Under the pieces are notes generated by a model that was given only the letters and a program-made list of their open reading frames with translations, did not search any database and was not told the origin of the DNA. From Blasia pusilla (lineage: Eukaryota), in contig CM114271.1 of assembly GCA_050084515.1 (NCBI GenBank), positions 35,216,001 to 35,280,000 on the forward strand: a DNA stretch of 64,000 nucleotides. The letters are read 5' to 3'. A program made the position numbers and the translations under genes. The first letter of the stretch is position 1. Every line of letters begins with the position of its first letter. Below, piece after piece: positions 8,232-39,457 of this stretch.

Positions 8232-8429
8232 CTCCAATCGCCCTCCTAGCTAGTGATTAGGTCTCTCTAACTCCAGATAGCCATCTATCCCTATCTACCA
8301 CGATATACATCTCTACAACGCTAAGAGAAGAAAGGCTGGGTGCTCATGTGGCCCCATCGTTAGTCGCCTTCCTGTCATCCATGTCACAGAAAAAGTCGGG
8401 ATCAAAACCTACCTAGTATCTCCTCTACG

Positions 8430-12600: not shown

Positions 12601-13599
12601 CAGTTATCCAGCAACACAACACCAGGAGAAGCCATGGCACGATCTATCACGAGTCTAGCGGGCATCTCCACCATCCTAGCAGCCGCAGCCTGCCATGAAT
12701 CTGACGTGGACGGCCCGAGCATCCGCTCCAAGGGCAGGTCCATCATCTCCTCTGCATTCACCTCTCAACGTGATGCAGGAACTCCAACTCCATGCTCACA
12801 TAGCGTAGCGGCCAGCCAAAAACCCTCGGCGGGCGTACCCCCCAACGTCATAATATCGGAAGCAAAAAATAAAGGATCGCGGTACACAATGGTGGCCGCC
12901 CCCAACAACGAATTTGCAAGTCTCTAAGTTGTATAATAAGTCTTTTGACTAGTGATAGTGGGAGTATTACTGTGATTTCAATTGTACAATAGTTAACAAA
13001 TGAAGAATAAGATATATTGTGGGGACCTTTCTTCTTGTAAGAGAATCCATAGAATAAGAAATTGTATGGTGAGATAATAAAAAACTTCAGCTCATAACCA
13101 AAAAATTTCTATTTTCATTTTAGAAACCAGATTGATGGGATAAGTTTAGATGAGCAAATTTCATGCATCAATGGAGGCACACTAGGGACTCTTGTTTGCC
13201 TTCACTCTGATGGTTAACAACTTGTAAAAAATAGGTAAATCAAGGCAAGAAGGTAAATCATTCATGGAGGGCTCATTGCAAATCGTAAGATCCAATAAAC
13301 AAAAATGTAATGAACCAACTAATCAGCAGATCTGACATGCATCTTTAAAAAATTTCAGAATGGTAGTTGAGAGCCTAAATGTAGGAAAATTGAGAAATAA
13401 GATACAATACAAAGTCCATTGCATTTACTTACAAAGTTCATGAGAACCTGAGTAAAAAACCAAGTTGATAGTGTAATTCTTGGACAACTTTGTCCAACAA
13501 AATTCATTCAAACAGAAAAAAGCAAGAGTTCTACTAAAGACAAGTATAAGGTATCCGGCGTAATGTCAGCAAAAACTGAAGCTTAATGAAACTAACTTT

Positions 13600-15805
13600 C
13601 ACACCATAAACTAATGCGGGCCTACAATCTTTTACACGGATCTCTCGGGCCACAAAATGGAAGAACCTCTTGCATCCTTGAGAAGTATTTGTGGAGGATC
13701 ATCATCGTGGTTGGGAAATGGTAGTTCAGCTTTTGGCTCTTGTACACTAATCAGATCCACCTTGATACACCCTAGGGGAATCAATCTACCATGGTATTGA
13801 TCTCTTCTGCAATGCCAAATATTTGCCCTATTCCCACATGTTGCCATCCTTTGCGATTCTTTGAAAGAAAGACATGATCCCCTACTATCAACTGTATATA
13901 CAATCACATTAACAAAAATCATATTTCAGATATGAACTTATAAATTCTAAAAATACACATAAGCACATGTTCCAATCTTAGTTACCTTCTTAACGCTCCA
14001 ACCATTTTGAGGAATATTGCAAGAATATGTGGGAATCGTAAAATCACCTTCCAAGAATTTCTACAAATCCGATCCACTTTAAATCAATATATATGAAGAA
14101 CTTTGCTCATACAATGAAAGCACAAAAGGAAACAAAACATCATCAATTACTTACAATGTTCTTCTCTTTCCTCTCGTTGAGTGAAGGGTGCTTCTTTTTT
14201 ATCTTTATCTTGGAAGAGCTCCCTTTCCCAACATATGTTGGGTCTTCTTTATACCCATGCCAATAGGTCCCACTAGAACTCCAGAAGATAAGCCCTGAGA
14301 TTCTTTAGGCTTCTTGCTCTCTAAGATTTCTTCTTCCATGTTCTCAATCACTCCCATACCATGATTAGTTTTTGAATTATGAGAAGGTTGTACACCTAAC
14401 ATAGAATTTCCATCTTCATCCACGGTTAAATCTAACACTAGATTATCATTAAGTTTTGATACCATGGGTAAACTCTGATCCTTAAGAACAGATGGGAGAG
14501 AAGGTGTCGGAGTAGGAACTACCACACTTGGATCAAAATTTGTGGTTTCTTGAGGTACCACTTGAGTCATCTTGGATAACATAGCCATGATTTGGCCTAT
14601 GTTTTTCTTGATATCAATAATGTCTGACTTTGTGGATGCACCATCTTTCTCCATATTATCTATTCTGTGGCTTAAGGATATTGTTGCACTCTGTATCAAA
14701 GGGCATGTTCATCAACAAAAACAAGTTAGCTATTTGCAATAGCCTAGAACCAAGATACAATGATGAAAATATCATATTAGTGCAACTATAAGGAGAGTAG
14801 GACTACTATACTTTCCAGCAAACAAAAAATCAGATTGGTGCAACTGAAAGATACAAGATCAAGCAACACAAAAAAGATCCAAAGACAAGAAGAGAAATAT
14901 GAAAGATACCATGGATTTGCAATCTATTGTAGAGGGCTACTCTTATTAAGAAGGATGTCAATAATACCTTATTGCTGATACTTTGTTGGCTTGGATCCAC
15001 TTTAGGAGTGTTGAGGGACTCTTGCATCTCTTGTATTGTAGGAGAAGTTCCACGCTCCTTCTTCTACTTGACAATATCCAAAATTGAAAAACCAGAATCA
15101 AGATTTAGTCATATTCCAAGATGTAAGAACTCCCTATAAAACCTAAATTCTACCAATAAAGAAACTAGGAGGGCTCAATGGATAATAAACTTACAAAATT
15201 TTCTTTTGGCTCGAATATCCTCGTCTCCCATTAGAGTTGGGGTTTTCCACCTTAGATCTATTGGTCTTCATTCGTTCAGATTTCTGTTGTCCCGCGGGTG
15301 ACACCCAATACGACTTCAATGACTGCCATGTTTTTGGATTTACATCTGGAGGACAAGCGCATTCTTCGGATGCCCCTTTTTCTCTCCAATACTTTTTCAA
15401 GCCGGCCCGCTCTCGTTTCATCAGATCTTGGAGAGAAGTACGCCAAAACTTCTCACTCAACTCACCACCCACATACTCGTAATGATTGTCAATCTCTCTA
15501 CGGATGGTTCTCAAGTCTTGCTCGGCTTGTTTACTAACATCAACTATACTAAGGTCCAATTGGTGATGTACACTCGCCTTGACATCATCATGCCATTGGC
15601 TCTTTCCTTCACAACCATAAACAATCTCACCATTTTCTGTCACCTCTATTGTAGGTTTTAGCCCTGCGTGTTCACGAATCGAGTTGGTTGCTTTCCACTT
15701 CTCATAAACTTCTTTGCGGCACATACTCTTAAGAGATGAATCCATCAAAAAATATGTAGTCAAAGTAAGAAAAAAAAACCAAGTTTCACCATGGAAAAAA
15801 ACCAT
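13600..15805 (-). mobile_element. CACTA/En-Spm second-gene (TnpA/Ptta-like) exons, degenerate
   Basis: ORF 15191-15805 contains CPPDVNPKTWQSLKSYWVSPAGQQKSERMKTNRSKVENPNSNGRRGY, typical of plant Ptta/En/Spm proteins. It lies on the same strand as, and downstream of, the CACTA transposase at 28132-31889. Boundaries approximate. Confidence 0.65.
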
Positions 15806-16468
15806 AATTGATAAAACCTGGATGTAATGTCATTTTTCTAATTACCCTACATAGAATTTTAACTTACCAAGTGGATTTTTCTGGTCTTTCCACTCATACG
15901 AAACTTCTATTGGAGTTGTTGATGGTGGTACATAAAAACCATGTGTAGGATGGTGTGGATAAAAGGTCACAGGTGGGACCAACCTCGAGGCATTGAACCT
16001 GCAAAAAAACAAGAGAGCTAATTGCTGAAGAACATATAGCAATGAACTACCATTACGACGATGAAAAAAGAGGAAAAAAATCCTTTGTGAACTAGCATAA
16101 GAACTTAGACCTAAGGATTGAACTTGAAAAGCTAAGCTCCAACCAGGTAATGAAGATGGCCATTGGGATGGCATTTGAAATCCTTGATGATAGCCATGCA
16201 TTGGCCAAGGGTATGCAACATTAGAGCAGGATCCTTGGTTGTCCTTTGATTTCTTTGCCGGACTGTTGCCCTACATAAGACACATATTCAACATGTGTAC
16301 ATACCCAATCAATTTATCAACAAAACCTGATAGGACTATTCCACTCACAGTTTGTTTTGGAAAGCTTACTAACTGAATATTAGACTATGCATTATAATTG
16401 TCGTGCGCCTACTCTCCTTGAACGTTAATCTTGTTTGTTGCGGAAGCGTGCGTTCAGTAGGTCACGCT

Positions 16469-16836
16469 TGTCATGACCATACGGATTATGTCGTAGAGTA
16501 TGGTGTGCTGGTAGAGGCCATTCCTTATGTAGGACCGTAGTGGCTTGGTAGAGATGCGGTTCCATACATAGGGTTGGGGGTTACTCACTTGGGGGTGACT
16601 TTCCCCATAGGGCCCGCTCTTAGGTTGGAGGATATAAGGTGGCTTGCCCTCAAAGAACAGTCAGTTCTTTGAGTTGAGCCTATTGCGTTGGGAGTTAGCC
16701 TTGGTAGTGAGTAGAGCTCTTGGCTATGGTGTTTCCCGCAAGCTTCGACCTAGATTCTCCCATTGTGGAGTGGGTTTGGCTCGATTGTATGTGATTGTAA
16801 ACGTGTTTTATGATAGTAGGTCTTTCACGGATTTCA
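16469..16836 (+). repeat. A1 repeat of element 2
   Basis: Nearly identical to 25729-26066, which lacks ~32 bp near its start. Followed by internal sequence CTCAAAGAAC, not by B. Confidence 0.9.
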
Positions 16837-18559
16837 CTCAAAGAACTGGAGTAGATCGATGGTAGCTTCGATTGTAGATCAGTAGGATCTGGTTAGGGCT
16901 GATTTTGTACTCATCCGTGGATGTTCGCGGCTTGTTGCCTATGTTGGAGGTGTGAATCAGGTACGTGGTTGGTTGGGAAAGAAGCGCCTTGCTGAGAGCT
17001 TTCCAACGCGCTATAGATCGCCGGATTTCGTCAAGGGAGTTGGAATTTATCAAGCATTGAAGATTCTGGTTCGTGTTAAGCGGTTTTTACGATGTGGAGA
17101 GCTTGGAGTGCGGAAGCTCATGAAGTTCATCCAGATCGGGTGAGAGGTTCCTATTGCTACTTGTATTGTGATCTCATGTGAAGCTATCTGCTGGAGTGCG
17201 TGGAGCGTTGGATTTCTCGTGCATGAAACTTGGCGGAAGCGCTAGCCGGATTTGCGGTTCTAGAGGTGTATGGACAAAGCAAGTTTGTCTGATTTTTAGC
17301 ACGGAGTCACGGAGCTCGGTTGTAGCTGAGTTTTTGTGGGGAGATAGCTATGGTGGTCAATTGAATTCTGATCGAAACAGATTTGATTTCGGTCACGTAT
17401 TTGTGAAGTAATTTCTGATCAAAATTTCGCGGACTAGCTCAAGGTCTGGCTATGGTGGACAGCGGATCGGAGGGGCTGGTTGGTTGGTGACTCGTTCATT
17501 TTTGGAGACGCCTATCCCGTTGGGGGCGCCCTGGTTGGACCTCTCTCCATAGCGAAGCATGGCGAAGCATGGCGAACGGGGCATGTCTCGGCGTTTCGAG
17601 GCTTCGAGGCTTCGAGGCAACTCGTGGTAGCTCGGGGCGAGTGGGCGTGAGAGGCGGAGTAAGGAGCAAGGAGCAAGCAAGCAAGCTTGCTTGCTTGGGC
17701 GTGAGGCAATTTTTGCAGGATTTGGGATTTGAGTTTTGCATAACTGGTCACCCATCTTTGGGCTATTCTGCCTGGAGGACGCTTAATTGCCGAGTTCTTA
17801 ACTATGCCGGTGTCATGGTTGTTGTAGCTCATTTGGTCTTTGTTCGGAGATGTGTTAGGCGCTTTATGCATCTCAGGTTTTTGGTTGATGTACCTCTAGC
17901 GCATAGTACGGTGTAGCCTCTCCATGCGGTGATATTTTCAGGTCTTTGCGCGTTCGACTAGCACGCGTCATCGACCCGCGGCGGAGTAGCTATTGCGTTA
18001 GAATTGTGTGGTGGGTTTTGTGGATTCAGAGGGCACCACGCGTTTGGTGGATTTTGTTACCTTGATTTCCATTTGCGATTGGAGGGTTGTCGTTGGATTT
18101 CCTATGTTTGAATCCCCTCCATCGTGCTTTTTTGCTTGCGCCCATTGTTAGGGTTGACGCTGATTTCGAGTAGTGTTACTCTGTGTGCTACCGGTAGTGA
18201 GGTGGAGGGATGACGAGTAGATTGTGGGAGACTTCTTGTGGTGATGACAAGTTAGGTTGCCTACACCCATAACTAGTAGAGCTAGAATAGTATAGCGACA
18301 TCGACGTCACTTGGTAATTTGGTGGTGGTGCGGCATCGGCGTTGGTCATCACGGAGCTGTCGGGTGGTCTCGTTGGGGACCGTGGTGCGGACAGTGGTGG
18401 TTTCACACGGAGTGGATTTAGGTATCGGCTACCTTTTCCACTTCCGACGGTTGATGAAGAGGAGGACGAGGGTGTTCCAAACACCGAGTCTTCTACGTTA
18501 TTATCGAGTGTTGCAGCTCTATTGATTTGGGACATGGACGGTGGATATGGGGCCATGAA

Positions 18560-19700
18560 GGGGCCCACGACGATACTCGGGTGCAGTGGGTACCATTGAG
18601 TTTGAGGACTTCATGCAGGAGTTTGATACGTGGTGTGATATGCAGATGTTGCGGAACGCCACGTTGTTTACACCCTTCTTGGCTTGGAAGGGTTGTTTCA
18701 AAGACTTGGAAGGACCACCCATGGATGATTACCATGAGTTTAGGAAGGACCATGTTGCTGAGATTGAGGCATGGAGACAATATTGGTCTCCAGGCTATGT
18801 GTCTATCACCCATGGTGGTATTGGTAGTAGTGCTCCTACTATGCCCCAGCCCGACGCCTGAGTGGGCAGTACGAGGAGTGGGGGTACTAGTGGAGGTACT
18901 AGTGGGGGTACTAGTGCCCCACCATCGTTTAGCCTTGTTGCAGAGTTCTTCAAGAGGTTGAAGAAGAACTATCAGGAGTGAAGACGGAGAAGTTGAGGAA
19001 TCTTCAGGACTTTGAGCGAAAAGACTGGTGAGAGTCTTCGTGAGGCATACACGCGTATGTGACGCTTGATTTCAGATTACCAGTGTGTGACCGAGGATCA
19101 GCATTCGATTTTGGTATGGGATCTTGGACAGAGATTTGCGCCGTAGGGCGTGATGCTACTCTTATGAGTGATGATTCACCCACATTGACCCATGTGTTTG
19201 CTCTATCCGAGAAGATTGAGCTTAACATGGTGAAGGAGAGAGTGGTGACATCCGCATTCAGTGAGGGATACAACTACTACTTCGTGTTCAACCGCCCACC
19301 TCACGAGTCTCGTAGTAGTGGTGGTGGTAGTAGTAGAAGTGGGAGTCGTGGGGTACACGCGACCTCGTCAAGTCCTAGAGGGACATTTGTGCAGAGACCA
19401 TTGCCTTCTTCATTTTGCCCGGCAGGGCGATCATGTTGGACATGTGGAGGTGATCATGTTAGGAAGTTTTGTCCCCAAGAGGATGGGAGACGGACTTTGG
19501 AGGATGGGCCTCGGTCGGCCCCAACTCGGTGTGATCATTGCGGGAGACTAGGTCATCCTCGAGAGCGTTGCTTTGATCTTCATCCGAGTTGAGATCACGC
19601 CGTGGCCGTGGTGGAGTAGCTCCGAGAGGCCGAGGTGGTAGAGGTGGTAGGGGTGGTAGAGGTGGACCAGTGGTTGGAGAGCCTATGGTGGCTACCCCTA
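18560..19700 (+). pseudogene. gag of element 2 (frameshifted), with two CCHC zinc knuckles
   Basis: CWTCGGDHVRKFC and CDHCGRLGHPRERC in ORF 19059-19592, followed by an RGG-rich tail. Start approximate. Confidence 0.8.
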
Positions 19701-20329
19701 CCACTACGACAGTCAACTATGGCTGCAGTGAGCGATTGGAGCAGAGTTGGCTACTATGGTGGTATCCAAAGATAGATCGGGTTCGGGAGCAGGGGCTTCC
19801 ACCTCTTATGGAGGGGATGATTTCTCTTATATGGCAAGTGCCGCCAAAGTTGAGGCATCACTGCGATTCTGAGAAGAGCCACTCGGCCAGAGCCACGTGG
19901 TGCTCTTGTGGAGTTGGACCCATAGAGGGGTGAGGGTGGGGCTAGGCTTCCCCAATCATTCTTGTTGTCCGAGGTGCTTAGGACTCCATCCATGGTTCCT
20001 CGTTAGCCTATTGAGCCGACAATGGGGATCGAGGCATCTACATCGCGTGTAGTAGACACGGATCAAAGATCAATGCGATGTGCGGATGGCAGCACGGTGT
20101 TGGGATCCCCATTGTTTTCGCCACGGAGTGATGGCTTTAGGAGTTGACTTAGCTCCTGTATTTGATTAGTAGCGACCACGTTGTGTGAACGTGGGGGTGT
20201 TCTTGCTACACGTGTTGAGGTGGATGAGGGTGTTGCGGTGGAGCGACCCTCTATGTCGAGTAGCATTGAGTACCGGTGCTACTTGGCAGGTGCAATGGCG
20301 AAGATGGATGCATTACCGGCCCGCCAGAC

Positions 20330-20800
20330 CATTGATCGTGAGAGGCTTACACCTGGTGTATGTATGTTGGACAACCGGAGTGGGATCTTCCGATTGGTGA
20401 GTCCCTACAGACAGGTGTATAGACCAGATAGAGTCTTGTTAGACTCGGTGCCCAACCTTGATGTTGGGAAAGCGGCATGTATTGGTTTGGGTATTCGGAG
20501 GTCGGACCTTGAGCCTTGCCCATTCCGATTCAAACATCACTTGGAGGAGCCAATGATAGGTCTCAATTCATGACATGGGAGAATTTTTCATGACAGTTGA
20601 GACCAGATCATGCGACCGATAGCTCCCGGTTGGGAATATCTGCGGTAGTCACATCACCGAGTCGTATGATGTACTAGTTGGAGGAGAAGATTGATTGTAC
20701 CCGATGGGTTTTCAGATGGATTCTTGGGTCGAGACAGCGTCTTATAGACCAGGTTGGCGATCGAGGGATGGACGTATGAGCCAAGTTCTGTGAGATTTAT
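20330..20800 (+). pseudogene. Aspartic protease of element 2
   Basis: RVLLDS(G/V)... and YDVLVGG motifs, colinear with element 1 ORF 12252-12584. Confidence 0.8.
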
Positions 20801-21160
20801 TTCGGGGCTCGACCAGGAGGATCTTCCCCAAGAGTGTTAGCATCTGTGGGTGGTTTTAGTGGAGTAGTCACTTGGCCAGAGACTTTTTGGAGGGTAATGT
20901 TTACGCTATGGATTCTCTGCGCATGAGGAGGAAGAGGAGGTCCCTATTTTTGCAGCATGGCATCCTCATCGTTGGATGTGCCACTTTGGAGTTCAGCGGT
21001 GCACTACGGCAGAGGCGTCGCCTAGTGTGAGGAGGCTTGGTGTGAGGTGTTATACCTCACGAGGAAGAGGAGGCCCACGGCGGACTCCTACTTACAGCAT
21101 TTTGATTAGGTTATCCCCTTTGGATACTACACCCATTGTATGGCAAAGTATCCGCCGGAG

Positions 21161-22110
21161 GGCATTTGTGTGTTAGATCTCTTTGGTGGGATTAGCACTT
21201 TGGTTTGGTCTGCATGTTGCGGCCGGTATTCTGTCTTGCGGAGATACGTATATGTGGAGCGAGATGAGACGGCCGAGAGAGTCTCATCCCGACATATGGT
21301 CGATTGATGCGAGATATCTGAGTTGTTGCCGCCATCGGCTATTCGTGGGTACCAGCGTGCTTTACCATCACACATTGCATTGTTGGGGCGCAGGACCTTG
21401 AGAGAATTGGTCCTGTGGATTTGGTGATTCTTTGGATGGCCATGTCGGGTCATACACGTCTTTGGTCGTGGTGAGGGATTACATGACCCTAGGTCTCGAT
21501 TGTTTTGGGAGATGTTACGGGTGTTACGACATCTTCACGTTCATCGCACACGTGCTCTAGCTTACATTCTGGAGAATGTTCCATTGTTGGGTGACACTCG
21601 GACCGGATGATGGCGAGTGTTCATGAGGTGCGGTCTTGGATTGAACCAGCGGTGTTGTTGGATGCTGGATGAAGTTGGCTCAGCGTGCACATCGTCCACA
21701 CTTGTGGTGGACAAACTTGTTGCCTAGGAGGTTCTCGTCGAGCATATGATGCGAAGGTGGGATCCTCGCCTTATAGTGGATAGTATCTTGAATCTTTGGC
21801 GACTTTCTCAAGTGGTGAGGGTTATTGATCGGTCACCCATGGCAGTGGTGAACCGTGTGGGCCAACCTAGGATGGCACTACCCACATTTGTGAGTTTTCC
21901 GCGTCACATGCCTACGAGGGAAGGTGGTCCGGGGCTTGTATGGGATTCTCATGCGGCAGTTGGTGGAGCCTAACGCTGATGAGAGAGCGTGCGATGGGAT
22001 TTACTCTTTGGCGTGGCATGACGGTTGCTTCTATTTACGAGGCTTCACGACGTCATGTGTTGGGTCAGGCCATGGACCTGAATTGTTTGATTTGGATTTT
22101 GAGTCTTGGT
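21161..22110 (+). pseudogene. DNMT3-like C5 cytosine DNA methyltransferase domain inside pol (frameshifted in this assembly)
   Basis: Motifs in canonical order: I GICVLDLFGGIST (21161); II RYVYVERDETA; IV GPVDLVI.GWPC (PC at ~21440) then GEGLHDPRSRLFWEMLRVL; VI YILENV (21563-21580); VIII VLLDA...AHRPHLWWTNL (~21652-21719); IX EPNADERE.AMGF (~21966); X RRHVLGQAMDLNCL (~22048). Confidence 0.88.
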
Positions 22111-22459
22111 ATGGCGAAATCGGCGTCGACTTTTGTGGGTCTTCCACCCCTTGTAATGAGCTCGATGGCTACCGGGACGGTAGAGGCATCGGCTAGGGGC
22201 GAGGAGAGTAGTATTTTGCATCCTTGGAGTAAATAGGATGTAATGGTGGGCATGTGGAGTTGGTTGCTCATCTTTGGTGGAGGAGTTATTTGCTCGATGA
22301 TGATGGTGTAGCTAAGGGTGTATCATCTTGTGAGGGGGTTGCGTGCGACCAATGGCATCGTCCTCTCCCTCTAGTATGCCAATGGAGGAGACTTGGGAGC
22401 CATTACTTGGGCCCAAGCTACGGGAGGTGAGAAACGACGCTGACACGGTTCCTACGTGC

Positions 22460-23830
22460 TTATAGGAGTTGTTTTGCCTTTAGCATGAAGGAGTTGGGTT
22501 CTCTGGTTGGACCCGGTATACGGATTGATTTGGCTAGTGATACGCCAATCTTCCGTCGTCCCTACCGATATAGTGATATGGAGAGGGACCTGATTGAGTA
22601 GGACGTTGGACCTTTTGGAGGCTGGATTAGTGGAGTTGTCGCATGGAGAGTATGCATCGCCTTTGTCATGCTGCTAAAAAAGGATATGCATGGCAACTAC
22701 ACGGATAGGCGGATGTGTGGAGATTACCGTCCTATCAATCGGCAAACCAAGGCCGATAGGTATGCCATGCCTACACTTGAGGAGATCTTTGATGTGGTGG
22801 GACAGGCAAAGATTTTCAAGTACTTTGATCTTGAGCGAGGATACCATCAATTGCCAATTCGAGAGTGACAAGGCCAAGACAAAGCATTTTGGGGTGTCAA
22901 CTCTCATGGCAAGGATTGTTTGTACCAAAGTGGAAATTCTTACCCTTTGGGTTGAAGAATGCACTGCTGAGTTTCAAAGAGTGATGGACAGGATCCTAGC
23001 AGGTTGGATTTTGTTTGGTGTTACATTGATGATATCTTGGTGTTCAAGAACACGGTGGAGGAGCATCGATACATTTGCAGATGGTGTTTGAGCGGTTGAA
23101 AGCTCATGGTCTACGTTTGCATCCAGGAAAGTGTAAGTTCTTCCATGAGGATGTTGAGTACTTGGGTCATGTGATCTATCCGGTGGTTTGGGAGTTCAAA
23201 GCAAGCAAAGGTGGAGGCTATTGCACTTATTCGCGTCCGATAGATGTGAGTAGAGTTCGAGCATTCATGGGATTGGCGAACCATGTCGGAGGTATGTGAA
23301 GGGATTTAGTGCTATGGCAAAGCCTTTGAACCAATTGCTGAAATCAGATCAAGAGTGGCATTGGGGAGATGATCGGGAGAGAGCTTTTGTGGAGCTTAAG
23401 GCCCGGTTGGTGGCGGCGCCTATCTTGAGGAGACTGTCGAGGGCGCCCATTTCGATTACACACTCGATTGGAGTAGGTTGGGACTTGAGCGGTGTTGACA
23501 CAACATGATGATGAGCACATGGAGTTTGTGGTGGCCTATGCAAGTCATTCGAATAATGCAATGGAGTCGCGCTATAGTTCATATGAGGGAGAGTGCTTGG
23601 CAAGAGTGTGGGTGGCACACTTTAGGTGTTACTTGTTTGGCACACAATTTACCCTTGTATCGATCACCGTCGCTCAAGTGGTTGATGGAGTCGGACAAGC
23701 TTACAGGGAAGCTTGCACGGTGGGCTCTTATCTTACAGAGTATGACTTCCAGGTGGTACATAGACCTGGAGTTGCCAACCTTGATCTTGATGGGTTGAGT
23801 AGGAACCCATGTACTAGCCAAGAGGATACA
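22460..23830 (+). pseudogene. Reverse transcriptase and RNase H of element 2
   Basis: RMCGDYRPINRQT, GYHQLPI, YIDDI, LHPGKCKF, EYLGHVI, VVAYAS, SYEGECLA, RWAL...YDFQVVHRPG. Confidence 0.92.
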
Positions 23831-24169
23831 ATCGGGGCTAGATGGCATGGCGAGGTTGATGAGGAGATGGTGCCAGGTTGGCATGCATCCGCCTTTTATG
23901 TTGGTTAGGGATGGACTCTAGTATGGAGGACCACATGATATCTTACTCTAGTTAGAGGGTAGATGGCCAGCCTTCAGATCCTAAGGTTGGAGATGGTGGT
24001 ACGGATCAGCGTGATATTCATGATGATGCGTTGGTGTTGGAGTTCCTACGGACCAGTAGGGTGCCAGGCATAGTGAGTGCAAGGAGCGAGACCGTGTTCT
24101 TTATCGTGCTAAGAGGTATCGATTGAGGGAACACATATTCTCCGCGTGTGGGAGGATGGTAGAGTACGA

Positions 24170-25445
24170 GTAGTGCCACATTTGGCTCGAGAGAGCGCAT
24201 TTTGCGACATGCCCATGAGGAGTTGGGACATTTTGGGGTAAAGCGACGTATAGCTTACTCCTTGGCGATATTGGTGGCGTGGCATGCATACTCAGTGCGG
24301 CAGATTGGTGTCATGTTGTATGGTTTGTGACCGGGTGAGGGCATCATTTAATGCCCCTACACCACAATTACACCCTTGCCTATTATGGGGTTGGGTTACC
24401 GTTGGAGTGTGGACTTTTGCGGGACCGTTACCGTTGGATGCACGACATCATCGATATGTGTTGGTGATGGTGGAGCACTTCTCCAAGTGGATTGAGTTGG
24501 TGGCATTACCGGACAAGGCAAGTGAGGGAACGGCGTATGCGTTTCTGGATAGAGTGCTTAGTCATTTTGGTGCACCAGCTGAAGTGCTGACCGACCAGGG
24601 TACAGAGTTTCAGGGTGAGTTTCAGGTCTTGTGTGACAAGGCGTTGATTGATCATCGGACCACGTCTCGAGATCATCCAGAGGCGGATGGTTTGGCTGAG
24701 CGTGTGGTTCAGACGGTGAAGAGGGCATTGCGCAAGTATGGCCCTCTGAAGGGCATCTTGAGACCAGGATATTCAGTTGCCATGGTTAGCCATGGGGTAT
24801 AGGTTCAGTCGCCAAGCATCCTTGGCTTCCTTCTCACCTTATTTTCTGTTATACGGCCGAGATCCAGACTTGCCAGCAGCAATTCGTCGGGAGTCTAGTG
24901 AGGTGGTGAACCTTGATGACCCAGAGATGTGGATGAGGGTGTGTTCTCAGCGGGCGGAGCTCTTTCGGAGAGTTATGCCAATAGCCTTTGAGAATCTTGC
25001 CATTGCTCAACACAGGATACGTTGCGGTATGCAACCATTTGGGGTGGAGGTTATCAACCATCGATTCATAGGTTCCATGTGGGGACTATATCTATTTGCA
25101 GCAGATTGCCCGACAACGTTGGATGTGACGGCAGCGCACTATTTTTTACGAGTGCGTGAGGTGTTAGCTTCTGGAGTTCTCATGTTGGAGGGTCGTGATG
25201 GAGTTGTTTGGAAGGACCATGTGCGTAATTGTGCGCCATGTCATCTTCCAAATGTGGATGGTACTGTTGACCCAAGCTTAGCCATGATACGTGCTAGCTT
25301 GAGGTGCATGTTGTGTGGGTCTCTTGCTGTAACGCAGCCCGTATGTTGGTGTGTGATCGGTGTTCTAGGGGTTGGCACATGATGTGTTTGACTCCACGTT
25401 TGGATGTTGTTCCTCTTTGGAAGGTGGGTTTGTCCTCGATGTACT
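24170..25445 (+). pseudogene. DDE integrase with C-terminal PHD finger (element 2)
   Basis: HHCC (HAHEELGHFG...CMVC); D-D-E core (DFAGP, LTDQGTEF, DGLAERVV); terminal CMLC...CDRC...WHMMC...CPRC at ~25303-25442. Confidence 0.9.
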
Positions 25446-25622
25446 TAGGAGAGGTAGATGACTTGATCTTTGCATGATATGGATTACTGGATGTGCGACT
25501 AACGATGGGGCAACCTAGCACCCGGCCTTCGATTTGGGCACCCAAGAAGGTGTATAGCATGTAGTAGATGTATAGGGGCTACCCGGGAGTTAGAGGACCT
25601 AACCGCCTTGATTAGGGGGCGA

Positions 25623-26172
25623 GTTGTGGTACACTTGCATTTGTGGATACTCGTCTATGTTATGTATGTATGTGCGTATGGTATGTCAGCGATGTATGTT
25701 GTATGACGATGTGGATTCGCACGACAGCTGTCATGCTGGTAGAGGCCATTCCTTATGTAGGACCGTAGTGGCTTGGTAGAGATGCGGTTCCATACATAGG
25801 GTTGGGGGTTACTCACTTGGGGTGACTTTCCCCATAGGGCCCGCTCTTAGGTTGGAGGATATAAGGTGGCTTGCCCTCAAAGAACAAATCAATTCTTTGA
25901 GTTGAGCACATTATGCGTTGGGAGTTAGCCTTGGTAGTGAGTAGAGCTCTTGGCTATGGTGTTTCCCGCAAGCTTCGACCTAGATTCTCCCATCGTGGAG
26001 TGGGTTTGGCTCGATTGTATATGATTGTAAACGTGTTTTATGATAGTAGGTCTTTCACGGATTTCAGTTGTGGTACACTTGCGTTTGTGGATACTCTCGT
26101 CTATGTTATGTATGTATGTGCGTATGGTATGTCAACGATGTATGTTGTATGACGATGTGGATTCGCACGACA
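25623..26172 (+). repeat. 3' terminal block of element 2: B1 (25623-25726), GC, A2 (25729-26066), B2 (26067-26172)
   Basis: B1 and B2 are near-identical (GTTGTGGTACACTTGC...GATTCGCACGACA). The junction GCACGACA-GC-TGTCATGC is a near-perfect palindrome. Confidence 0.92.
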
Positions 26173-28131
26173 CGCTCTCAACGCTGATCTGCATCCAAAC
26201 ACGCACTCTGGTTAGTCGGGTCTTGGATCAATCAGCGGGCTAACTTTCCGAGTTCTTGTCTCAGACTCTCATCAAGCTTAACCTTCCTAGTTTCGCGGTT
26301 TACAACATGGGCAAATCTCGAAAGACTTGGGACAGACTATCTGCTCGGTTCAGGAAACCTAAACGGCGTTTCGCGCCTGGCGGTTCCAACTGTCCTATGG
26401 ACATCCAATGAGTTCCTCACCAAAACTTGCACGAAGTGAATCTCGGGTTGGGATCCAAGTGTGGCGTATAAATTCCACTCCCTTGGATCAGGATTGGGTT
26501 TCGAGTTCCAACGCCAAACTCCCGTTCCATCCCGTGCCTCTGAAACGCCGTTTGGCGCCCAAAGTGGGGATTCGTATTCCGAGACATCTTAGAGAGACTC
26601 CTCCCTTACTAGTACTTCAAGGGATCTCCGGGGGCCCCCTACATTTAGGGAAAGACACCCGGGCCTCTCCAATTGGCCCTCAACCCGATTGCTCTCTCAA
26701 TCATTTTTGGCCGATATCTCAGCCTGTACTTTTGCGTTTGCTAAGATCTTTGGTGCGTTGGAAGCATCTCAAGATCAGCTTTCTAACTCACCCTTACTTG
26801 TCTTGAACGCATCTTGGAGCTCAACGTTATGGTCCTAAACACAATCAGATTCTCCCAAACGCTAGTCGTGTTTCAAACTGGTTCTCACCTCTTTGGCAAC
26901 CAACCTCCCAAGACTCAACTCATCTCAAGTCTTGTCTTGCGTTTGGTCTAGGTTTCCTGGTCGCAACCACTAACGCATGAAATGCACAACTCTGTGCTGC
27001 GTTTCGTCTCTTAGACTTTTCCAAGAGACCTTTTCCAAACACCACTCCAAAGCGCAAACCTCGCAGCGTGAGTTCACTTGAGTTTTGATGTTTCGCTTGG
27101 CGCCTATTTGGTGTTGTTTGGTTATGAGGGTCGTGAAAATAATCTAGATAAGCATGAAATGAAAAAGGTAAGGATAAGGATAGAATCTAACTTTTTGTTC
27201 TCCATGTTTAGGACGGCTGTTGATCTTGAATGGAAACTTCGAGGTGCTTTCTCTAAGAAATTGTGAAGGCTCTGGACTTGATTGCTCCAGATTAACATCA
27301 AATTTGGGATGTGACTCCAAAGCATCACTATTGAATTTTTCCTCGTCATGTGAAGAGCGTAGCTTGGTCGTCCATCTTCAATTTATAGCATCGTTGACGA
27401 GTAAGATGTACTTTGGGCGTGGATGGTTGTTGTGTCTTTCTAGTATGCTCTCTCGGTACCTTAGCTATGCGTGATTCCTCTGGAAAAACTGACCTACAAA
27501 CCAGCATGTAACATAATAATATGTAAGTTCCATACAAGTTACGGAATATGACCTCAAAGTACACCTCTGTATAATATCTTCCACATCTCTTCAAAGCAAG
27601 GATCTTTAAGAGCCTTAATTGGAAATTGGAAAATATGAGGAAGAGCAAAGATGGCCATTGAGAAGCAAGGAGACGTATTGCTGCCCTCACTCTTGCACGA
27701 CGCTCCTCTCGTAATCTGAAATACTCTGTGTTCGCCTCCTTTGTGGATAGTTTTGTCCCTACATCAACAAGCGGAACTCCTTTTTCCGAAGTCGTTAGGG
27801 TAACTCCACTATTAGATTGAAAATGGTTTTTGGACTCTTGAATCTGCATCCTGAAATCAAACACATATTGCAAAACCAAGGAATGTATTTAGCCACAAAT
27901 CTTTGGCACAGTCAAAGATGTGCCAATGTCTTGAGTTTAACATTTTACAAGTTAAACACTCTCTGATTGGCATAATCAGACCTTGCACCAGATTTGGAAC
28001 TTTCATAAAATAAAAAAATTGTAACAAAAAGTGTCCAAATAGGAATCAACACACTATTGCAATACCTGGATATTACATTGAAGTCCATTACAATAGCTTT
28101 TCATTACTCCTCTATTACAAAGTAGTACACC

Positions 28132-31100
28132 TTACTCACTATCAGAACTAGTCCTCATTTCACAACTATCTTTGGAACTTTCACCATGTTCTTCATCGGG
28201 TACAAACTCTATTGTTGCTAAAGCTAATTCTGCATCGGATAGGTGGATGGCACCAAGCAATGAGATGTCTTGCACTTCATTGTCCAAGTGTGATTGTGCC
28301 CTCAAGTCTCCCAAGTTGATATGATCAGTAATACAAATGTCTGGTCTACCCCCCTACAACTCTTCTAGAACGGGTTTCTTTTTGCATAAATACCTTCCAA
28401 CCTATACGTTCCTCAACTGGAGCATAGAATACATGTTCAACTTGGCTGGGAAAAACAAAGGGATCTGAATTAAGTGGTAGTAGTTTTCTGAAATCTACTA
28501 GGAGAAACCCATTTTCATCATGCATCATTGTAGCATCAATCCCATTCCATGAGGATTTTACCCACTTGCCTCTCATAAGAACTATATGCTCATCCAATGT
28601 GCCATAATCTAATTGCAAAATATCTACTAGAATGCCAACATAAGGGATTTGGCTAAGATGATTCACTTGGTTAGCTGTTTGTGAAAGAAATATACTTGTT
28701 ATACCTGAGTTGTATGTAGAGAATGAACTATCGTCATCCACCCTAAAGTGATTTCCATATGCTTTCATTTTCTTAAAAGAGAGGTATGAAAGTGATGGAG
28801 GCACTGAAAACTTCAAGACTAATTCATCAAGCTGGTTTCCTTTAGCATTTTCTTCTCTAATTTTAAGACGTATCCACTCAGCAAATGTGTATTCACACTC
28901 GCCAGAAAGTCTATAAATTCTACACAACAAAAGTACATCAGAATCTGATATTTGTGAGACCAATGATACAATAGTAGCAATGGCAAAGTTAAGACCTAAA
29001 ATCAAGGTTGGACCAATGGCTTACTTACTTGATTCAGCTAGTGAAACACTCACTATTTTCCAATACATATTGATGGACCACAACTGCCATTTCAGCTGTT
29101 AACTGGCGCTTAGTGCCTACTCCTTCCAAAACCTCACCGATAATACCTTCCTCCTCAGAAGCATCCCAAATCCTAGTTTGCACCACTGTGTAATCTTGCA
29201 TGTACTCTATGGTGAATCCTACAGCTTCATCAAGGATACACCCTTCAGCCATACATCCCTCAAGTTGAGCTCGAGATTGCACATAACCTTTTAGAACTCC
29301 CAAGTATCGTTCTATCGTATACATCCCATCGACAACCAACTAGACCTTATATGTCAATCTCTTCCACCAAGTGTACCATAGGTGAGTCATGACATCAAAG
29401 AAAGATGGGGGGAAGTGTACTTCCATGAGGCACAAGGTAGTTGCCACATCCTCTTTCAATGAAGCAAAATAGGCTGGATTCCAAGTTTTCACACAAAGCT
29501 TCCAAAATACTCATGACATACGCATTACTACCATTCTCACAGGACCCTTCAAGAGACCCCATAAGAAATAAAGGCATCAATTGTTGCATGAATACATGCA
29601 GGTCATGAGACTTCAAGCTACCTAATTTCTTGCATAAGAGGTGCTTCTGTAATGCACCTGCATACCCACTCGGAACCTTAAGTGCTTCTACCCTTAAGTG
29701 GAAGACTTTTATTTCCTCAAGACTCAACACATAGTCTGCTCTGGGTTTGAACTTAGCCCCATCTCTCTTAGGATGGGCTTGCAACCAAAAATGTTTTCGA
29801 ATACCTCTTACCTCCATGTCTTGCCTTACCTGTATAGAGTCCTTCTTCTTAGAACCAAAAGGGTCTTAAGGGTATTATCAGCAACATTCTTTTCACGATG
29901 CATCACGTCCAAAATATGCCAAATTAGTAAGCCTTGGAAAAAGCCAACACACAAAGAGAGATTAGTTGAGAGGAAGTCTAAAAAATACAAGGATAAATAT
30001 TTAATCGGGTTACATAATAAAGTAAGCCTTTGAAAATAAGATACTATTTGAAGATGAACAATAATTTGAAAGGTGAGAACCTGGAAAATATTGGTTGTAA
30101 GATATTACCTTCCAATAAGGCAGGTCAAATAGTATGCTCCGTCGTGAAACTCCAGTTTGCTTGTAGGGATCAATACGCATCGGTACACCTCTCCTTGGCG
30201 GTGCCTTGGGTTCACTATAATAAACTCTTTTCAATTCAGCCTACTCAAGTATCTCATCACTTCATACCCACCTTGGTATTTCTCGGGTCTCCACTTTACA
30301 ATCAAAATGATGGGCCACTTGGCGCATCCTATATGGGTGATTTCTCTCCTTCTAACGCCGATGGCCTTGAAATGCAGTTTTGTGCAATGGTTTGGAGTAG
30401 TGTGAATCCACATTAGGTCCACACACTACACACCCCAACTTGCCTTTTTGTGGCTTGGCCAAAGACAATACCCAAACCTTGGTAGTCAATTATGGTCCAT
30501 ATGACCATTGCTCGAAGCTAGAACTTAGCAATGCCTTCTACACTACTACTCTCAAAAGCTGTGACCCCTTTCCAAAGTATTTGCAACTCCTCAACAAGTG
30601 GAGCTAAGTATATATCTAGATTTTTAGAAGTCATTGATTCCTTCCCCGGAATTATAAGAGCCAATTGGAGAAATAACTTTTTAGTACATAACCAAGGGGG
30701 TAAGTTATAATTGACCAAAAGCACTGGCCAAGTAGACCACACATTTTTTTTCACTAAATGGATTGACCCCATCTAATGCCAAACCAAGCCTACAATTTCT
30801 GGGCTCATTCATGAACTCTGGCCATTGAAGATCAATTTCTCTCCATTGCTTAGAATCCCCAGTGTGCCTCACCAATCCATCTGTACTCTTGTTCTTGGAT
30901 GTCCATGTCATAAGTTCAGCAATGGATGTACATCTATACATACGCTTCAACCTTGGAATAATAGGGAAGTGTCGTAACACCTTCATGGGCACTTTACCCT
31001 TCCCCATTTGCTTATACCTTTGTGACATGCACTTGGAACATGTGTCCAAATCCTTGTGAGCACCTCGAAACAACATGCAACCATTTGGACACTCATGAAT

Positions 31101-31889
31101 CTGAATGTAATTCAGTCCAAGCTTTGTGACAAGTTTTTTGCTTGCATAATGGTTTTTAGGGATATGGTTGTCATCAGGTAGGACTTGTAAGCTAAATAAT
31201 TTCAAGAACTCATCAACATCCACATTTGGGATGTTATGAGCTCCACAAATATTCAGAAAAACCATTGTGAATGTTAGTTTACTAATCCTACTTCCAGGGA
31301 CCTAAGGGCAACATGCTTCTCTCAATGCTGCCCAATCTTCCTCACCACATCCTAATCCAGAATCTTCGTCTCCTATCTCAAAAGGACTATCATCAACATC
31401 TTCTTGTGGAGCCCTTTGATCCTAAGCAAAGGGTTCCTCATTGTCTCTCTGGTCAAATCTATGAAAGGCTTCATTGATCATTCTATGAACATTTATATCT
31501 TCATCAATGTCTGTCACACCTAACGTAGGATTTCTTATATTACATTCAATCCCTTTGGTAGGACTGTCCACATGCACAATTCTATTTTCAGATCTTGACC
31601 TCCACTCATCATCTGATGAATTATACTCATCAGTATTTCTCAAAATTCTTTTTGAAGGAAACGTATTATACATAATGAGATGTTTCTCTATGACATGCAA
31701 AACACTCAATTTCATCTCTTTGCATTCATTACATGGACATCTAAGCTTCTTCAACCCTAAGTTCCTTGCTGTCTCTTTTTCTCTTCGCCACAACTCTTCA
31801 TCATGTGATGCAATTTGTTGTGGGTGATCAAGATTCAACTTTGGGTTGGTCTCATGATGCTGCTCACAAATTCTTCCTGCGGCTTGCAT
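28132..31889 (-). mobile_element. CACTA (En/Spm) TnpD-type transposase pseudogene
   Basis: LRCPCNECK; IHECPNGCMLFRG...VLRHFPIIPRLKRMY; RNCRLGLALDGVNPF; STWPVLLVNYNLPPWLC; LKSHDLHVFMQQL; MYTIERYLGVLKGYV; DPFVFPSQVEHVFY. Confidence 0.92.
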
Positions 31890-32570
31890 TCTTTTTTGTT
31901 TGAGGTATCCTTAACTAGAAAGGTAATGTACCTGCTTGTGATGATTACCAAATTATGATAATACTTTTTGAAGCATTTTCTCACGTTGACTGTCCCTTTC
32001 TTGAAGTCCACTACTTGAACTTGTTCTACCCATAATCAGCCCCAAGGAAAGTTTCCAACAACACCCGACATGAACACACATTAAATGAGATAATAAGATT
32101 AAACAAAATGCTATGATTGCTCCGTATGTTATCCACAATATGGAAGGGATCAACGAGTGAAATCTTGGGAGGCACAAGTGGGAAGAGAAGAGAACTTACG
32201 AGTCCATCAATTTGAACAACAAGATAGAAGGAGTGATATGGTAAAAAGACGGTAGCCTTCTACTACATATGGGTAGATTATGCAGAGGCAAGAGAGAGAA
32301 ACACAATAGGTTGGAATTACCCTAACAACTAAGCAATAGAGACGAATTCTAAGGAATTGAGGAGAGAGGCACTTTTGCAAATTTTCAACAAGAGGAAAGT
32401 GCAGGTCAGAGTGCATGTCAGAGGAGACAAAAATAGTGCCCAAAGTATTTTACGAGTTCAACTTGTGAGAAATCCACTACTAATCTTCACCTTAGATAAA
32501 AAATACATGGAATCATCGAAGTACCAAGTGAGACCAATTTGAAAGAAGATAAGCCAAAAAATCTATAGAG

Positions 32571-32688
<118 letters not shown>

Positions 32689-32699
32689 TGTGTGTACTC

Positions 32700-35600
32700 A
32701 TTAAGTAGTGCTCATTCATAGCCTTTCATAGCCATAGACCCCATACTGGTTGGACGGTGCTTGAGACTAGGATGGGTGTAGAGAGAGAAGCAAGTGAAGA
32801 AGGTACCATATGAGAGGAGGGAGACACTCTCGTATAGTGTGAGTGCTGACCAAACAACATGTTTGTGCGGAGCTTCCAAGTGTCAACCAAGAAACTCTTC
32901 ACCACACCATCTACTTTACGTGATTGGGATCCCCAATAGACATTACTTACCAGTGCAGCAGCTTTGGGCAATGAATCAAGGCTATTGAATGTGTTGAAAA
33001 ATTCTGGTGCTACCACCTTAGCAATATCAATATATGCTCTTGCTCTGTGAGTTGTGAATTTTGCGCAGGAGACCAAGAAATGACTAGAGGTTTCATCCCC
33101 ATTGTCACACAAGGCACAAGAGTTTAGTTGTGTTCCCATCCTGCTTTTCTTATGGTTCAAGGGGATTGCTCCTGTTTTGAACTTGAACTTGAGCCGGGTT
33201 CCCAAGCAAGGGATTCCCCGCAAATAGTTCTTCAGTTCTACCTCAGGATATATTGTCAAGAGAGAGAGGTCAAAAATTTTCATGGCTTCCTCCATGTTGT
33301 TCTACTGTGAGCGTTTGCCCATTGCTTTGGTTATGGTATCCACAAATGTTTTTTCATCTTGCTCCCACACTTCAGGCCCTGCTGGGAGCTTGGAAGCTTG
33401 CACATCTCTTGAACCTTTTTCGTCCAAGATTTGGCCTGCTTTACGGGTCTTCTTTGGGTCCATGTTTTCACCATCACCTCTTTAGGATAGCGATTGGAGT
33501 CCATTGTCTCCCGCTGCCTCTGCCATTTCAACTTGGCAATGTCACGTCTATCCTCCCCCGTGTGGCTACATACACCTCTTTGGGCATAGAATTCTCGAAA
33601 GATTTCATGTGGGATGCACACATTAAGAAGACTACTGAGAAAGGCCACAAGAAGGTGAAAGGTCTGTCCAGATTCCTACACTGCCGGGATATCACATCAG
33701 AAGTAAAGCGCTCTGTCATTTTGCATACCATTCGTCCCTCGCTGGAATACGGGGCAGCAGTGTGGGATGCCAACATCAAAAAAAGGGATAGGCTTGAAGT
33801 TGTGCAGCTGAAGGCGTTTCGGGGTATGATGTCAACCTCATCACGAATAGCCGAGTTGGTGTGAGATTAGAACTAGGTGTGGAACCCTTGGAGGATAGAC
33901 GTGACATTGCCAAGTTGAAATGGCGGAGGCAGCGGGAGACAATGGACTCCCATCGCTATCCTAAACAGGTGATGCTGAAAACATGGACCCAAAGTACCAC
34001 TGTTTGCCCGAGTACCACTATTGGTCTTGGTCCTCCTCCTTGCCATTGAAAATCATCACACCGCACTTCAGTTCATTTGGCTCCATGCCCCACATGTCAC
34101 ACCAGATTTTGGTCAGGGAGATCATCTCTTGGAGTTTCTCTCCTCTTTCCTCGAGGCCATCAAAGTCATGAACAAACATGAGGGCAACAAGAGAGCTGTT
34201 GCCCACCCGTATGCCTAGTCCACTATCCTCCATTTCTTCCAATAGGGAATCTACGAAAATGTTTAAGAGAGTGGGGGAGAGCGGGCATCCTTGAGCCACT
34301 CCTTGCTTGATGACGAATGTCCCACTCTTTTGGCCATTCTCCAGAACTCTACTCCTTGTGTTCTGGTACATCTTCTCCACCACCCTCCACATTTTCCCTT
34401 TCAACCCCGCCTATCATGCCATACAATGTTGTATGCCTTCTTGAGGTCCAAGAAGAAGCAATAGGTGGGTTGACCCTCTTTTTTCCTACCCTAGATAATC
34501 TGACTGAAGGTGAAGATGTGATCCATGCATCCTCGGGCTTGCTGGAAGCCAGCCTGGCCTTCCTTGATGATAGAATTCTCCTCTAGGTACACAAAGATCC
34601 TATTTTTGAGTATACGGCAAAGGAGCTTCCCGACTACACTCAACAATGTAATACCCCTGTAGTTTCTAGGGTCTTCTCGCTCACCCTTCTTGAAAAGGTT
34701 TACGATGACTCCCACCCGCCATCTTTGTGGGATGACTTCTGCCCGCCAGACCAGGTTGAAGGGACTCACTAGAGAACGAGCCATAGCACCATCGCCATAC
34801 TTCAACAGCTCATTCACAAGCTCATCACCACCCACCTTATGCCTATCATTCAGTGCCATCAGTTGAAGTTCCCTCAACATCGTGATCAGCCGTGTGCCAT
34901 TTTCATTCACTCTCACATCTCCAAAAATCCTCATCTCCGCTTGGGAATCGGTGCCTTTCCCCACCCAGCTATTGAAGTCTCCGTGCAAGACTATGTTCCC
35001 CTTTGTCTCGAACCCAAGGCAATCAGTTTTCACACTATCAAAAGTTGCCTCTGTTACAGCAGCAGATTCACCGTTTGTAGGCATATAAATACACCCAATA
35101 TACATATCCCATGAGTTGCACTCTGCTCGGACTTTGACCCATATGTTGTGTTCATACTCGAGCCCTCTACTGATGATCTCACACCTGTCCACCATGAAGT
35201 CTCTAATGAAGAACCCAACACCCTTCATACCTCTATTGTTGTCCGCCTGGGTGCTGCACATCTTTCCAAACCATGCATAGTGTGGTACATGGGGTATCTC
35301 CATTAACTTGGTTTCCCAAGTTTCCTGACCACCTCATATGTGTATTTGATTTTTCAGCAAAACTTCAGCAACCTCTAGCTGCTTCATTGCATGGGTCAGT
35401 CCCAGAAGTTCCAGGTACCCAAACAGAGACCTGTCACTAAGTGGGTTGGGGGTCGGCGGGCATGCTTTTGGCGTAGGTGTAGCTGCTTGCAACATGGAAC
35501 CTCTTCATGTGCAGGCTCTTCATTTCTGGTTCCTTGGAGAGCACTAAAGATATTAGGTGTGTAGATCACCAACGGTTTTGTGGAGATGGGCCTTTCCTTC

Positions 35601-39177: not shown

Positions 39178-39457
<280 letters not shown>

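Follow-up and report, generated by a model that had tools for sequence, protein, structure and literature searches.

Joined termini inside the split repeats of Ty3/gypsy elements with a DDE integrase in Blasia pusilla, and a possible route of their integration

Retroelements with long terminal repeats (LTRs) are taught to integrate from linear complementary DNA (cDNA) carrying an LTR at either end, their circles being dead ends. We have analyzed a stretch of 64,000 nucleotides from Blasia pusilla (assembly GCA_050084515.1, contig CM114271.1, positions 35,216,001 to 35,280,000), hereafter called the window, which contains two diverged Ty3/gypsy elements (elements 1 and 2) with two kinds of direct repeat, A and B, laid out in the order A1-internal-B1-NN-A2-B2, NN being a spacer of 2 bp. 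The closest description concerns KnitGypsy-Dnmt3 of Klebsormidium nitens, the repeat order of which is given, in the relevant passage, as A-coding-B-A-B and called 'the same as that of a DIRS retrotransposon' (de Mendoza et al. 2018, PMC5890265). As far as that passage goes, window-type elements share with KnitGypsy-Dnmt3 the gypsy domains, a C5 DNA methyltransferase (DNMT) in pol and the A-coding-B-A-B order. The likeness is one of layout and domain set; the window elements are bryophyte relatives, unlike the Klebsormidium element, and element 1 further differs from the latter in having no DNMT stretch. The passages of PMC5890265 considered here are silent on termini, spacer, target duplication, priming sites and mechanism. 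Searches of the literature for gypsy integration by the route considered below yielded only this layout note of 2018 and a 2026 preprint that names 'streptophytes (Gypsy-DNMT3)'.

Elements of the DIRS order (Ngaro and PAT-like ones) have the arrangement A1-B1A2-B2 with internal joined termini, as do the window elements; they encode a tyrosine recombinase, whereas only a DDE enzyme of the rve type was found in window-type elements, together with 4-bp target duplications. A second point of comparison is the older circle-junction model of retroviral integration, which reportedly goes back to Panganiban and Temin. Cleavage of palindromic LTR-LTR junctions by retroviral integrases is described, in the parts of the two reports considered, for human immunodeficiency virus 1 (PMC1905944) and prototype foamy virus (PFV; PMC1180852). 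The likeness lies in the palindrome of abutted ends, ...CA-NN..NN-TG..., in which nicks 3' of CA on both strands give processed ends. The retroviral palindrome coincides with the LTR-LTR joint, and the retroviral circle seldom leads further, whereas in window-type elements the palindrome would lie inside each LTR, between B and A and with a 2-bp spacer, while the LTR-LTR joint A2/B2 would stay unopened. Insertion sequences of the IS3/IS30 type, in which a DDE enzyme acts on abutted inverted ends a few bp apart, offer an analogy only, their circles being excised DNA and not reverse transcripts. Finally, Tf1-type elements are self-priming, the 5' end of the transcript pairing with the primer-binding site; in Tf1/sushi-type Ty3/gypsy elements a stretch within the 5' repeat is complementary to the bases that follow this repeat, as appears to be the case here.

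The first-pass annotation of the window had described a junction in which the right end of the element (...GACA) is joined through 2 bp to its left end (TGTC...), and we found it at both of the sites concerned. Positions 25719 to 25736 read GCACGACAGCTGTCATGC, that is GCACGACA-GC-TGTCATGC, and a perfect 12-bp palindrome, CGACAGCTGTCG, occupies positions 8104 to 8115; repeat finding and self-BLAST place both exactly at the end of B1 and the start of A2 in the two elements. The motif GACANNTGTC occurs five times in the window against 1.31 expected, a number reached by 1 of 100 shuffles, and its versions with a GC spacer are the two B1/A2 junctions. We are nearly certain that the palindrome represents the joined termini of a gypsy element with a DDE integrase. 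Element 2 occupies 9704 bp of the + strand (16469 to 26172), starting with TGTCATGACC and ending with CGCACGACA. Its repeats and those of element 1 are as follows.

16465 to 16468, unstranded: element 2, left copy of the target-site duplication CGCT (flank comparison and empty-site-like contig joint)
16469 to 16836, + strand: element 2, A1, left terminal repeat, from TGTCATGACC to GATTTCA (left end from the family contig joint 26172 to 16469)
25623 to 25726, + strand: element 2, B1, an internal copy of B2, ending ...CGCACGACA (repeat comparison)
25727 to 25728, unstranded: element 2, 2-bp spacer GC, centre of GACA-GC-TGTC (sequence, junction listing, shuffles)
25729 to 26066, + strand: element 2, A2, an internal copy of A1, starting with TGTCA (32-bp deletion relative to A1)
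26067 to 26172, + strand: element 2, B2, right terminal repeat, ending ...CGACA (CGCACGACA; repeat comparison)
26173 to 26176, unstranded: element 2, right copy of the target-site duplication CGCT (flank comparison)
7422 to 7541, - strand: element 1, B2, right end, terminal ...GCGCACGACA (repeat comparison)
7542 to 8108, - strand: element 1, A2, starting with TGTCGCAAC on the minus strand (repeat comparison)
8109 to 8110, unstranded: element 1, 2-bp spacer GC, centre of the perfect palindrome at 8104 to 8115 (sequence, shuffles)
8111 to 8230, - strand: element 1, B1 (91% identical to B2)

The left end of element 2 was hidden because its A2 has a 32-bp deletion right after TGTCA: at 25734 it is without the 32 bp that A1 (16474 to 16505) and the family contigs contain, the junction being intact and A1 and A2 being about 97% identical outside the deletion. 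To place this end we relied on contigs of four public sequencing runs mapped on element 2 (the labelling of runs X12, X14 and X18 as RNA is a guess only). A1 starts at 16469, because contigs of the same family join the end of B, 2 letters and position 16469, as in one contig of run X18 with a shorter side of 107 letters. Moreover, one X12 contig bridges the flanks from 16462 to 26171 (6 ambiguous letters, shorter side of 37 letters), and the 9708 bases it skips equal element 2 plus one copy of the duplication at a likeness threshold of 90; it may derive from a paralogous copy of the repeat and not from an empty allele. A left end at 16506, where there is no target duplication, was rejected in view of the A2 deletion and of the family contigs, and the apparent extension of B to 26180 is accounted for by the target duplication plus chance. 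Nesting of element 2 in a similar element, hinted at by TGTCGTGCGCC at 16399, was also discarded after neither a partner repeat nor a palindrome was found. Just to the left of 16399, the site of TGTCGTGCGCC, several X12 contigs part from the window; this position looks like the edge of another multi-copy element, element 2 having inserted 70 bp further on.

To extend the comparison to related elements, metagenome contigs were scanned with an alignment of nine integrase proteins, which returned 80 loci. Sequence of at least 1200 bp was available downstream of the integrase in 50 of these, 16 of which showed in a first pass a B1/B2 pair 170 to 260 bp past the gene; the A and B repeats of locus L002 were then used to map the ends of its family, here called the main family, giving 12 long 3' ends. 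The junctions listed number 23 (15 from main-family loci, six from other families and two from the window elements), among which L006 and L033, as well as L038 and L039, probably sample the same elements twice. All but one have the form ...ACA-NN-TG... with a spacer of exactly 2 bp, the exception being L032, in which a deletion runs through the site. The spacer had been announced as an invariant GC: its length is borne out by 22 of the 23 junctions, and thus does not vary randomly between copies, but its sequence is not fixed, since relatives also have AC, AT and GT (GC in 13 cases, including both window elements, AC and AT in four each and GT in one). All these variants are transitions away from GC, and C-to-T and G-to-A changes abound in the copies. 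Long perfect palindromes persist in families that share only about 50% integrase identity, for instance GTGACA-GC-TGTCAC in L046 (GTGACAGCTGTCAC) and CCCGACA-GC-TGTCGGG in L066 (CCCGACAGCTGTCGGG).

Integrated copies begin with 5'-TGTC(A/G)... and end with ...(C/T)GACA-3', and a perfect 4-bp target duplication flanks seven of the nine complete elements, namely element 2 and six of the eight related ones:

L001, TACA
L002, AAGG
L022, TGTG
L041, TACA
L047, CATA
L056, AATC
L040, imperfect, 3 of 4 bases
L067, imperfect, 2 of 4 bases

The 5' ends consist of flank followed directly by A and leader, without B upstream, at all 12 visible in the main family and all three in the window. The two B copies are alike within a family while B differs between families, and no fixed difference between B1 and B2 emerged over 114 columns in 10 elements; because of this joint evolution without a fixed difference, B appears to act as a replicated, LTR-like repeat. 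Eight divergent loci (L043, L044, L052, L063, L069, L076, L078 and L080), in which neither a purine tract nor a junction nor an LTR pair could be recognised, were left unclassified. Two structural oddities may be added. The contig of L021 (1 to 9317) is circularly permuted, B1-GT-A running straight into primer site and leader and the contig end continuing into its start; this could reflect either assembly collapse of A1 and A2 or a circular or tandem form. In L038 (3699 to 3878) and L039 (1750 to 1929) an inverted partial A follows A2 in place of B2, possibly because of a nested insertion or as an artefact of the assembly.

With respect to protein content, Pfam recognises RVT_1, RT_RNaseH, Integrase_H2C2 and rve in both window elements, which can be delineated further by comparison with the near-intact relative L021:

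20226 to 20775, + strand: element 2, aspartic protease remnant (tblastn with the first open reading frame, ORF1, of L021; Pfam on L021)
21152 to 22218, + strand: element 2, C5 cytosine DNA methyltransferase remnant (35-43% identity to L021 ORF1, amino acids 935-1292)
22392 to 25445, + strand: element 2, remnants of reverse transcriptase, RNase H, H2C2/rve DDE integrase and PHD finger, with many stops (Pfam, tblastn)
8428 to 11478, - strand: element 1, reverse transcriptase, RNase H, integrase and PHD region (Pfam, tblastn-type comparison)

L021 has two long frames split by a single in-frame stop (5083 to 5085). The first contains aspartic protease and C5 DNA methyltransferase (PF00145, E 1.8e-13; the remnant in element 2 gives a weak PF00145 match in Pfam, E 0.0094), and the second RVT_1, RNase H, H2C2, rve and PHD finger. 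The sole integrase domain found is a DDE enzyme, in agreement with the earlier supposition of a retroviral-type integrase; the Pfam scans of the window elements and of L021 gave no match to tyrosine recombinase (PF00589). The L021 integrase has acidic residues at the aligned motifs LDFAGPL, TDQG and AER, which we take to be the D,D,E triad, and aligns with the integrases of PFV (E 7.4e-22) and Ty3 (7Q5B, E 8.5e-22). The closest pol proteins are those of liverworts (Calypogeia with 69%, Riccia and Marchantia) and Closterium, and a further protein comparison gave 42 matches in which Marchantia was the only named organism.

The pol order of Ty3/gypsy elements (Metaviridae) is thus present, with protease, reverse transcriptase, RNase H and an integrase combining H2C2 and an rve DDE core, as are the TGTC...GACA termini with 4-bp target duplication (4-6 bp being usual for this class, with TG...CA termini) and the putative priming sites, a primer-site-like sequence adjoining A1 and a purine tract adjoining B1, not A2. 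The trait that departs from this class is that the termini of the integrated copy differ, A lying on the left and B on the right in place of identical LTRs. Of the traits of the DIRS order (DIRS1, Ngaro and PAT-like elements), which has either split direct repeats or inverted repeats plus an internal complementary region, the split direct layout (A1-B1A2-B2) is found, whereas the tyrosine recombinase is not, an rve domain being present. The lineage is a streptophyte Ty3/gypsy one with C5 DNA methyltransferase and PHD finger, of the 'Gypsy-DNMT3' type with DIRS-like repeats, and the window elements would accordingly be new bryophyte members of this kind, whose anatomy lends a specific form to the hypothesis of an integration route. 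Element 1 has only about 300 bp (11478 to 11778) where element 2 and L021 have the C5 DNA methyltransferase part of roughly 1.2 kb; the split-repeat layout therefore exists also in a copy or family without methyltransferase. GC skew is strong in the region, ranging from +0.22 to +0.28 on the coding strand of element 2 (16001 to 26000) and being negative over element 1 (6001 to 16000); the sense strand is G-rich and C-poor in both elements.

The position of the putative priming sites bears on how the two repeats are to be read. The candidate sites in the window elements and the primer-site matches in the families are the following.

25613 to 25622, + strand: element 2, polypurine-tract-like TAGGGGGCGA directly upstream of B1 (sequence; tract in related loci)
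16837 to 16848, + strand: element 2, primer-binding-site-like CTCAAAGAACTG directly after A1 (complementarity to mid-A)
16662 to 16673, + strand: element 2, CAGTTCTTTGAG, a segment of A1 complementary to the bases that adjoin A1 and presumed to be the transcript's 5' end and self-primer (12-nt exact match)
8238 to 8248, - strand: element 1, polypurine-tract-like TAGGAGGGCGA upstream of B1 (sequence)
Primer-site match in element 2: 12 nt, CTCAAAGAACTG
Primer-site match in L002 and L015: 16 nt, CTCAAAGAACTATGTT
Primer-site match in family 1 (elements 3 and 4, described below): 15 nt, CAAAGAGAGAATGAG
Primer-site match in L021: 16 nt, ACTTGACAAGAATGTC

A G-rich purine tract (e.g., CTAGGGGGGCGAG) stands directly before B1, and not before A2, in all 16 listed loci and in both window elements. 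On the other side of the element, in six of the 12 elements tested, a run of 12 to 16 nt following A1 at offset 0 to 2 has its exact complement within the central part of A, the longest matches in shuffled controls being 8 to 12 nt across the 12; in element 2 the match is of 12 nt at offset 0, against a shuffled mean of 4.6 and maximum of 10. The six elements without such a match are mutated. The pairing co-varies, being kept in three families with differing sequences, and therefore points to a putative self-priming site of the Tf1 kind. By the logic of strand transfer, a purine tract before B1 and a primer site after A1 together imply that the reverse-transcribed LTR would be B-NN-A. The first-pass annotation suggested that the element may template a circle junction; the junction does not, however, resemble a DIRS-style template of this kind, because the two sites would place B-NN-A inside each LTR, and what is opened would be a copy of it within a circle or tandem-LTR molecule. 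The A2/B2 joint of element 2, GATTTCA/GTTGTGG, sits where the two priming sites predict, A1 being followed by CTCAAAG (GATTTCA/CTCAAAG) and B1 being preceded by GGGGGCGA (GGGGGCGA/GTTGTGG).

Other features of these sites were also seen. At the DNA level, A of element 2 contains a hairpin (16649 to 16673), with a copy of the primer site, CTCAAAGAAC, situated 5 bases upstream of the complementary GTTCTTTGAG; the hairpin of L021 at 8823 to 8865 has the same arrangement with another sequence. The A2/B2 joint of L007 (2669 to 2695) carries a 17-nt insertion repeating part of the 3' end of A, together with CGAG, which also closes the purine tract, and that of L011 (3050 to 3054) has one extra base, while joints are exact in all other long copies. 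These two cases, too few in number, are suggestive of a joint A2/B2 made anew in each cycle.

The anatomy described above leads us to propose the following route. Minus-strand DNA would begin at the self-priming site adjoining A1 and plus-strand DNA at the purine tract adjoining B1, giving a linear cDNA of the form [B-NN-A]-internal-[B-NN-A]. Its ends would then be joined, the end of A to the start of B, producing tandem LTRs as in a 2-LTR circle, and this joint would be the A2/B2 boundary retained in every long copy. The DDE integrase would next nick 3' of CA on both strands at the B-NN-A palindrome next to the primer site; as the nicks would lie 2 bp apart, opening of the circle would yield a linear form whose CA-3'OH ends are recessed behind 5' overhangs of 2 nt. 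Finally, the opened molecule would insert with a 4-bp stagger and one NN would be lost. The bookkeeping fits, a 2-LTR circle having two A, two B and two NN and the integrated copy two A, two B and one NN, and the integrated A-internal-B-NN-A-B may be seen as a circular permutation of the predicted cDNA. We consider it probable that some molecule with joined ends is opened at the palindrome, whereas for its identity with the specific 2-LTR-type intermediate the chances seem evenly balanced. Taken as a whole, a Gypsy-DNMT3-type attachment junction with a four-step route of the 2-LTR type is the explanation that we favour on balance.

Several points weigh against this route. The linear cDNA, the circle and its cleavage by integrase are predictions from the structure of the copies, and all joints that a circle would contain (B-NN-A, A/B, A/primer site and purine tract/B) also occur in the integrated long copy; because of this, reads cannot separate circle from chromosome. 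The comparison of B identity, 0.95 within an element and 0.94 between elements of the main family, is uninformative. Opening of the other, identical palindrome of the 2-LTR circle would give A-B-NN-A-...-B, a form seen at none of 12 5' ends; short-read assembly may have collapsed it. For an LTR element to rely on end-joining would also be out of the ordinary. Short copies (purine tract-B followed by flank, without A2-B2) make up about 21 of the 36 informative 3' ends of the main family, with perfect duplication in three of the five complete ones. Such copies may be primary products of linear or 1-LTR-circle cDNA, recombinants between B1 and B2, or collapsed B-A-B assemblies.

The excess of short over long ends in the main family (about 21 against 12) and the duplications around short copies are what an alternative reading would build upon, in which linear or 1-LTR-circle cDNA is cut at the palindrome inside each LTR, so that the short A-internal-B form is primary and the long one a minority by-product, though the only form able to replicate. 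A short copy has no 3' A (no 3' R), leaving the first strand transfer unsupported, and for want of this A short copies should not replicate. Furthermore, the two 3' ends present in the window are of the long kind, the short forms stem from metagenome contigs assembled from short reads, where a B-A-B loop can collapse, and recombination between B1 and B2 yields the same short product; we therefore regard this reading as unlikely. An equally improbable alternative is a DIRS/PAT-like route with a DDE enzyme, whereby cDNA, possibly single-stranded, would be circularised by annealing of its ends to the internal B1-NN-A2 as a splint and the junction opened by the integrase; this is what the first-pass annotation, taken literally, proposes. 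It would suit the conservation of the junction and the split direct repeats of DIRS-order elements, the layout stated in the passage on KnitGypsy-Dnmt3 (PMC5890265), as well as a 506-nt contig reading B-NN-A-B, from a run whose label as RNA is only a guess. However, the purine tract at B1 and the co-varying self-primer site at A1 allow both repeats to be explained by ordinary LTR strand transfers with no need of a splint, the A2/B2 joint lies at the place that these sites predict, and Pfam finds no tyrosine recombinase in L021.

A further alternative, in which DIRS-type elements provide a tyrosine recombinase in trans for integration and the DDE integrase has no bearing on the layout, has the resemblance to the DIRS order as its sole point in favour; we hold it to be very improbable in view of the 4-bp target duplications in seven of nine complete elements, the TG...CA-type termini and the rve integrase with conserved acidic motifs in near-intact L021, where, as in the other scans, PF00589 had no match. 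Least credible of all is the view that this is an ordinary LTR element whose palindrome arose by chance, by local rearrangement or in the assembly, a notion that the initial difficulty in recognising the ends of element 2, owing to the 32-bp deletion in A2, might have encouraged, but that is contradicted by the enrichment of GACANNTGTC (5 against 1.31 expected) and by the recurrence of layout, 2-bp junction and duplications in the two window families and at least six others, on independent contigs.

The window contains additional copies related to element 1, here called family 1. A1 of element 1 itself was not found, its homology to element 2 ending near 12690 to 12920, and its 5' part is missing or unrecognisable beyond about 12920. 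Two other 5' parts of this family run from 1832 to 517 (- strand) and from 55675 to 56971 (+ strand):

1328 to 1832, - strand: element 4, A1, starting with TGTCACAAC, followed by primer-site-like CAAAGAGAGAATGAG at 1313 to 1327 (repeat comparison)
55675 to 56167, + strand: element 3, A1, starting with TGTCACATC (repeat comparison)

A1 of element 3 is likewise followed by CAAAGAGAGAATGAG, at 56168 to 56182, which is complementary to 56011 to 56025, and all three A copies of family 1 begin with TGTC(A/G)CA. The left flank of element 3 (55669 to 55678) reads GACA-GA-TGTC and so mimics the internal junction; this may be a coincidence or reflect a target preference, and TACA- or CATA-like sequences account for several of the target duplications. 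To the right of element 2 lie remnants of a CACTA/EnSpm-type DNA transposon (28349 to 31910, - strand) with Transposase_21 (E 4.7e-14), Transpos_assoc and DUF4216, a zf-RVT match (32729 to 33301, - strand) and a long (AG)n microsatellite with an inverted (CT)n partner 6.5 kb apart (32567 to 32690 and 39180 to 39340). A weak and distant integrase-like match at 63328 to 63804 (- strand), 26% identical to the integrase of L021, suggests a fragment of a further retroelement.

For the biology of this lineage, the arrangement would mean that its integrated copies could not be made from linear cDNA with LTR ends as termini: insertion would use ends internal to the reverse-transcribed repeat, and each copy would preserve the joint of the two cDNA ends. 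We advance only tentatively, and with slightly less than even confidence, the broader proposition of a DDE-integrase LTR lineage obliged to integrate from a tandem-LTR molecule via a palindrome inside the LTR, in which the unopened LTR-LTR joint would stay in the daughters, a DIRS-like layout would have evolved without tyrosine recombinase and the circle-junction model, abandoned for retroviruses, would be normal. If true, it would provide a natural system in which a retroviral-type integrase acts on an internal palindrome and would account for the layout recorded without explanation in 2018. Split direct repeats would then not be diagnostic of tyrosine-recombinase elements, a conclusion that bears on the automatic classification of transposons.

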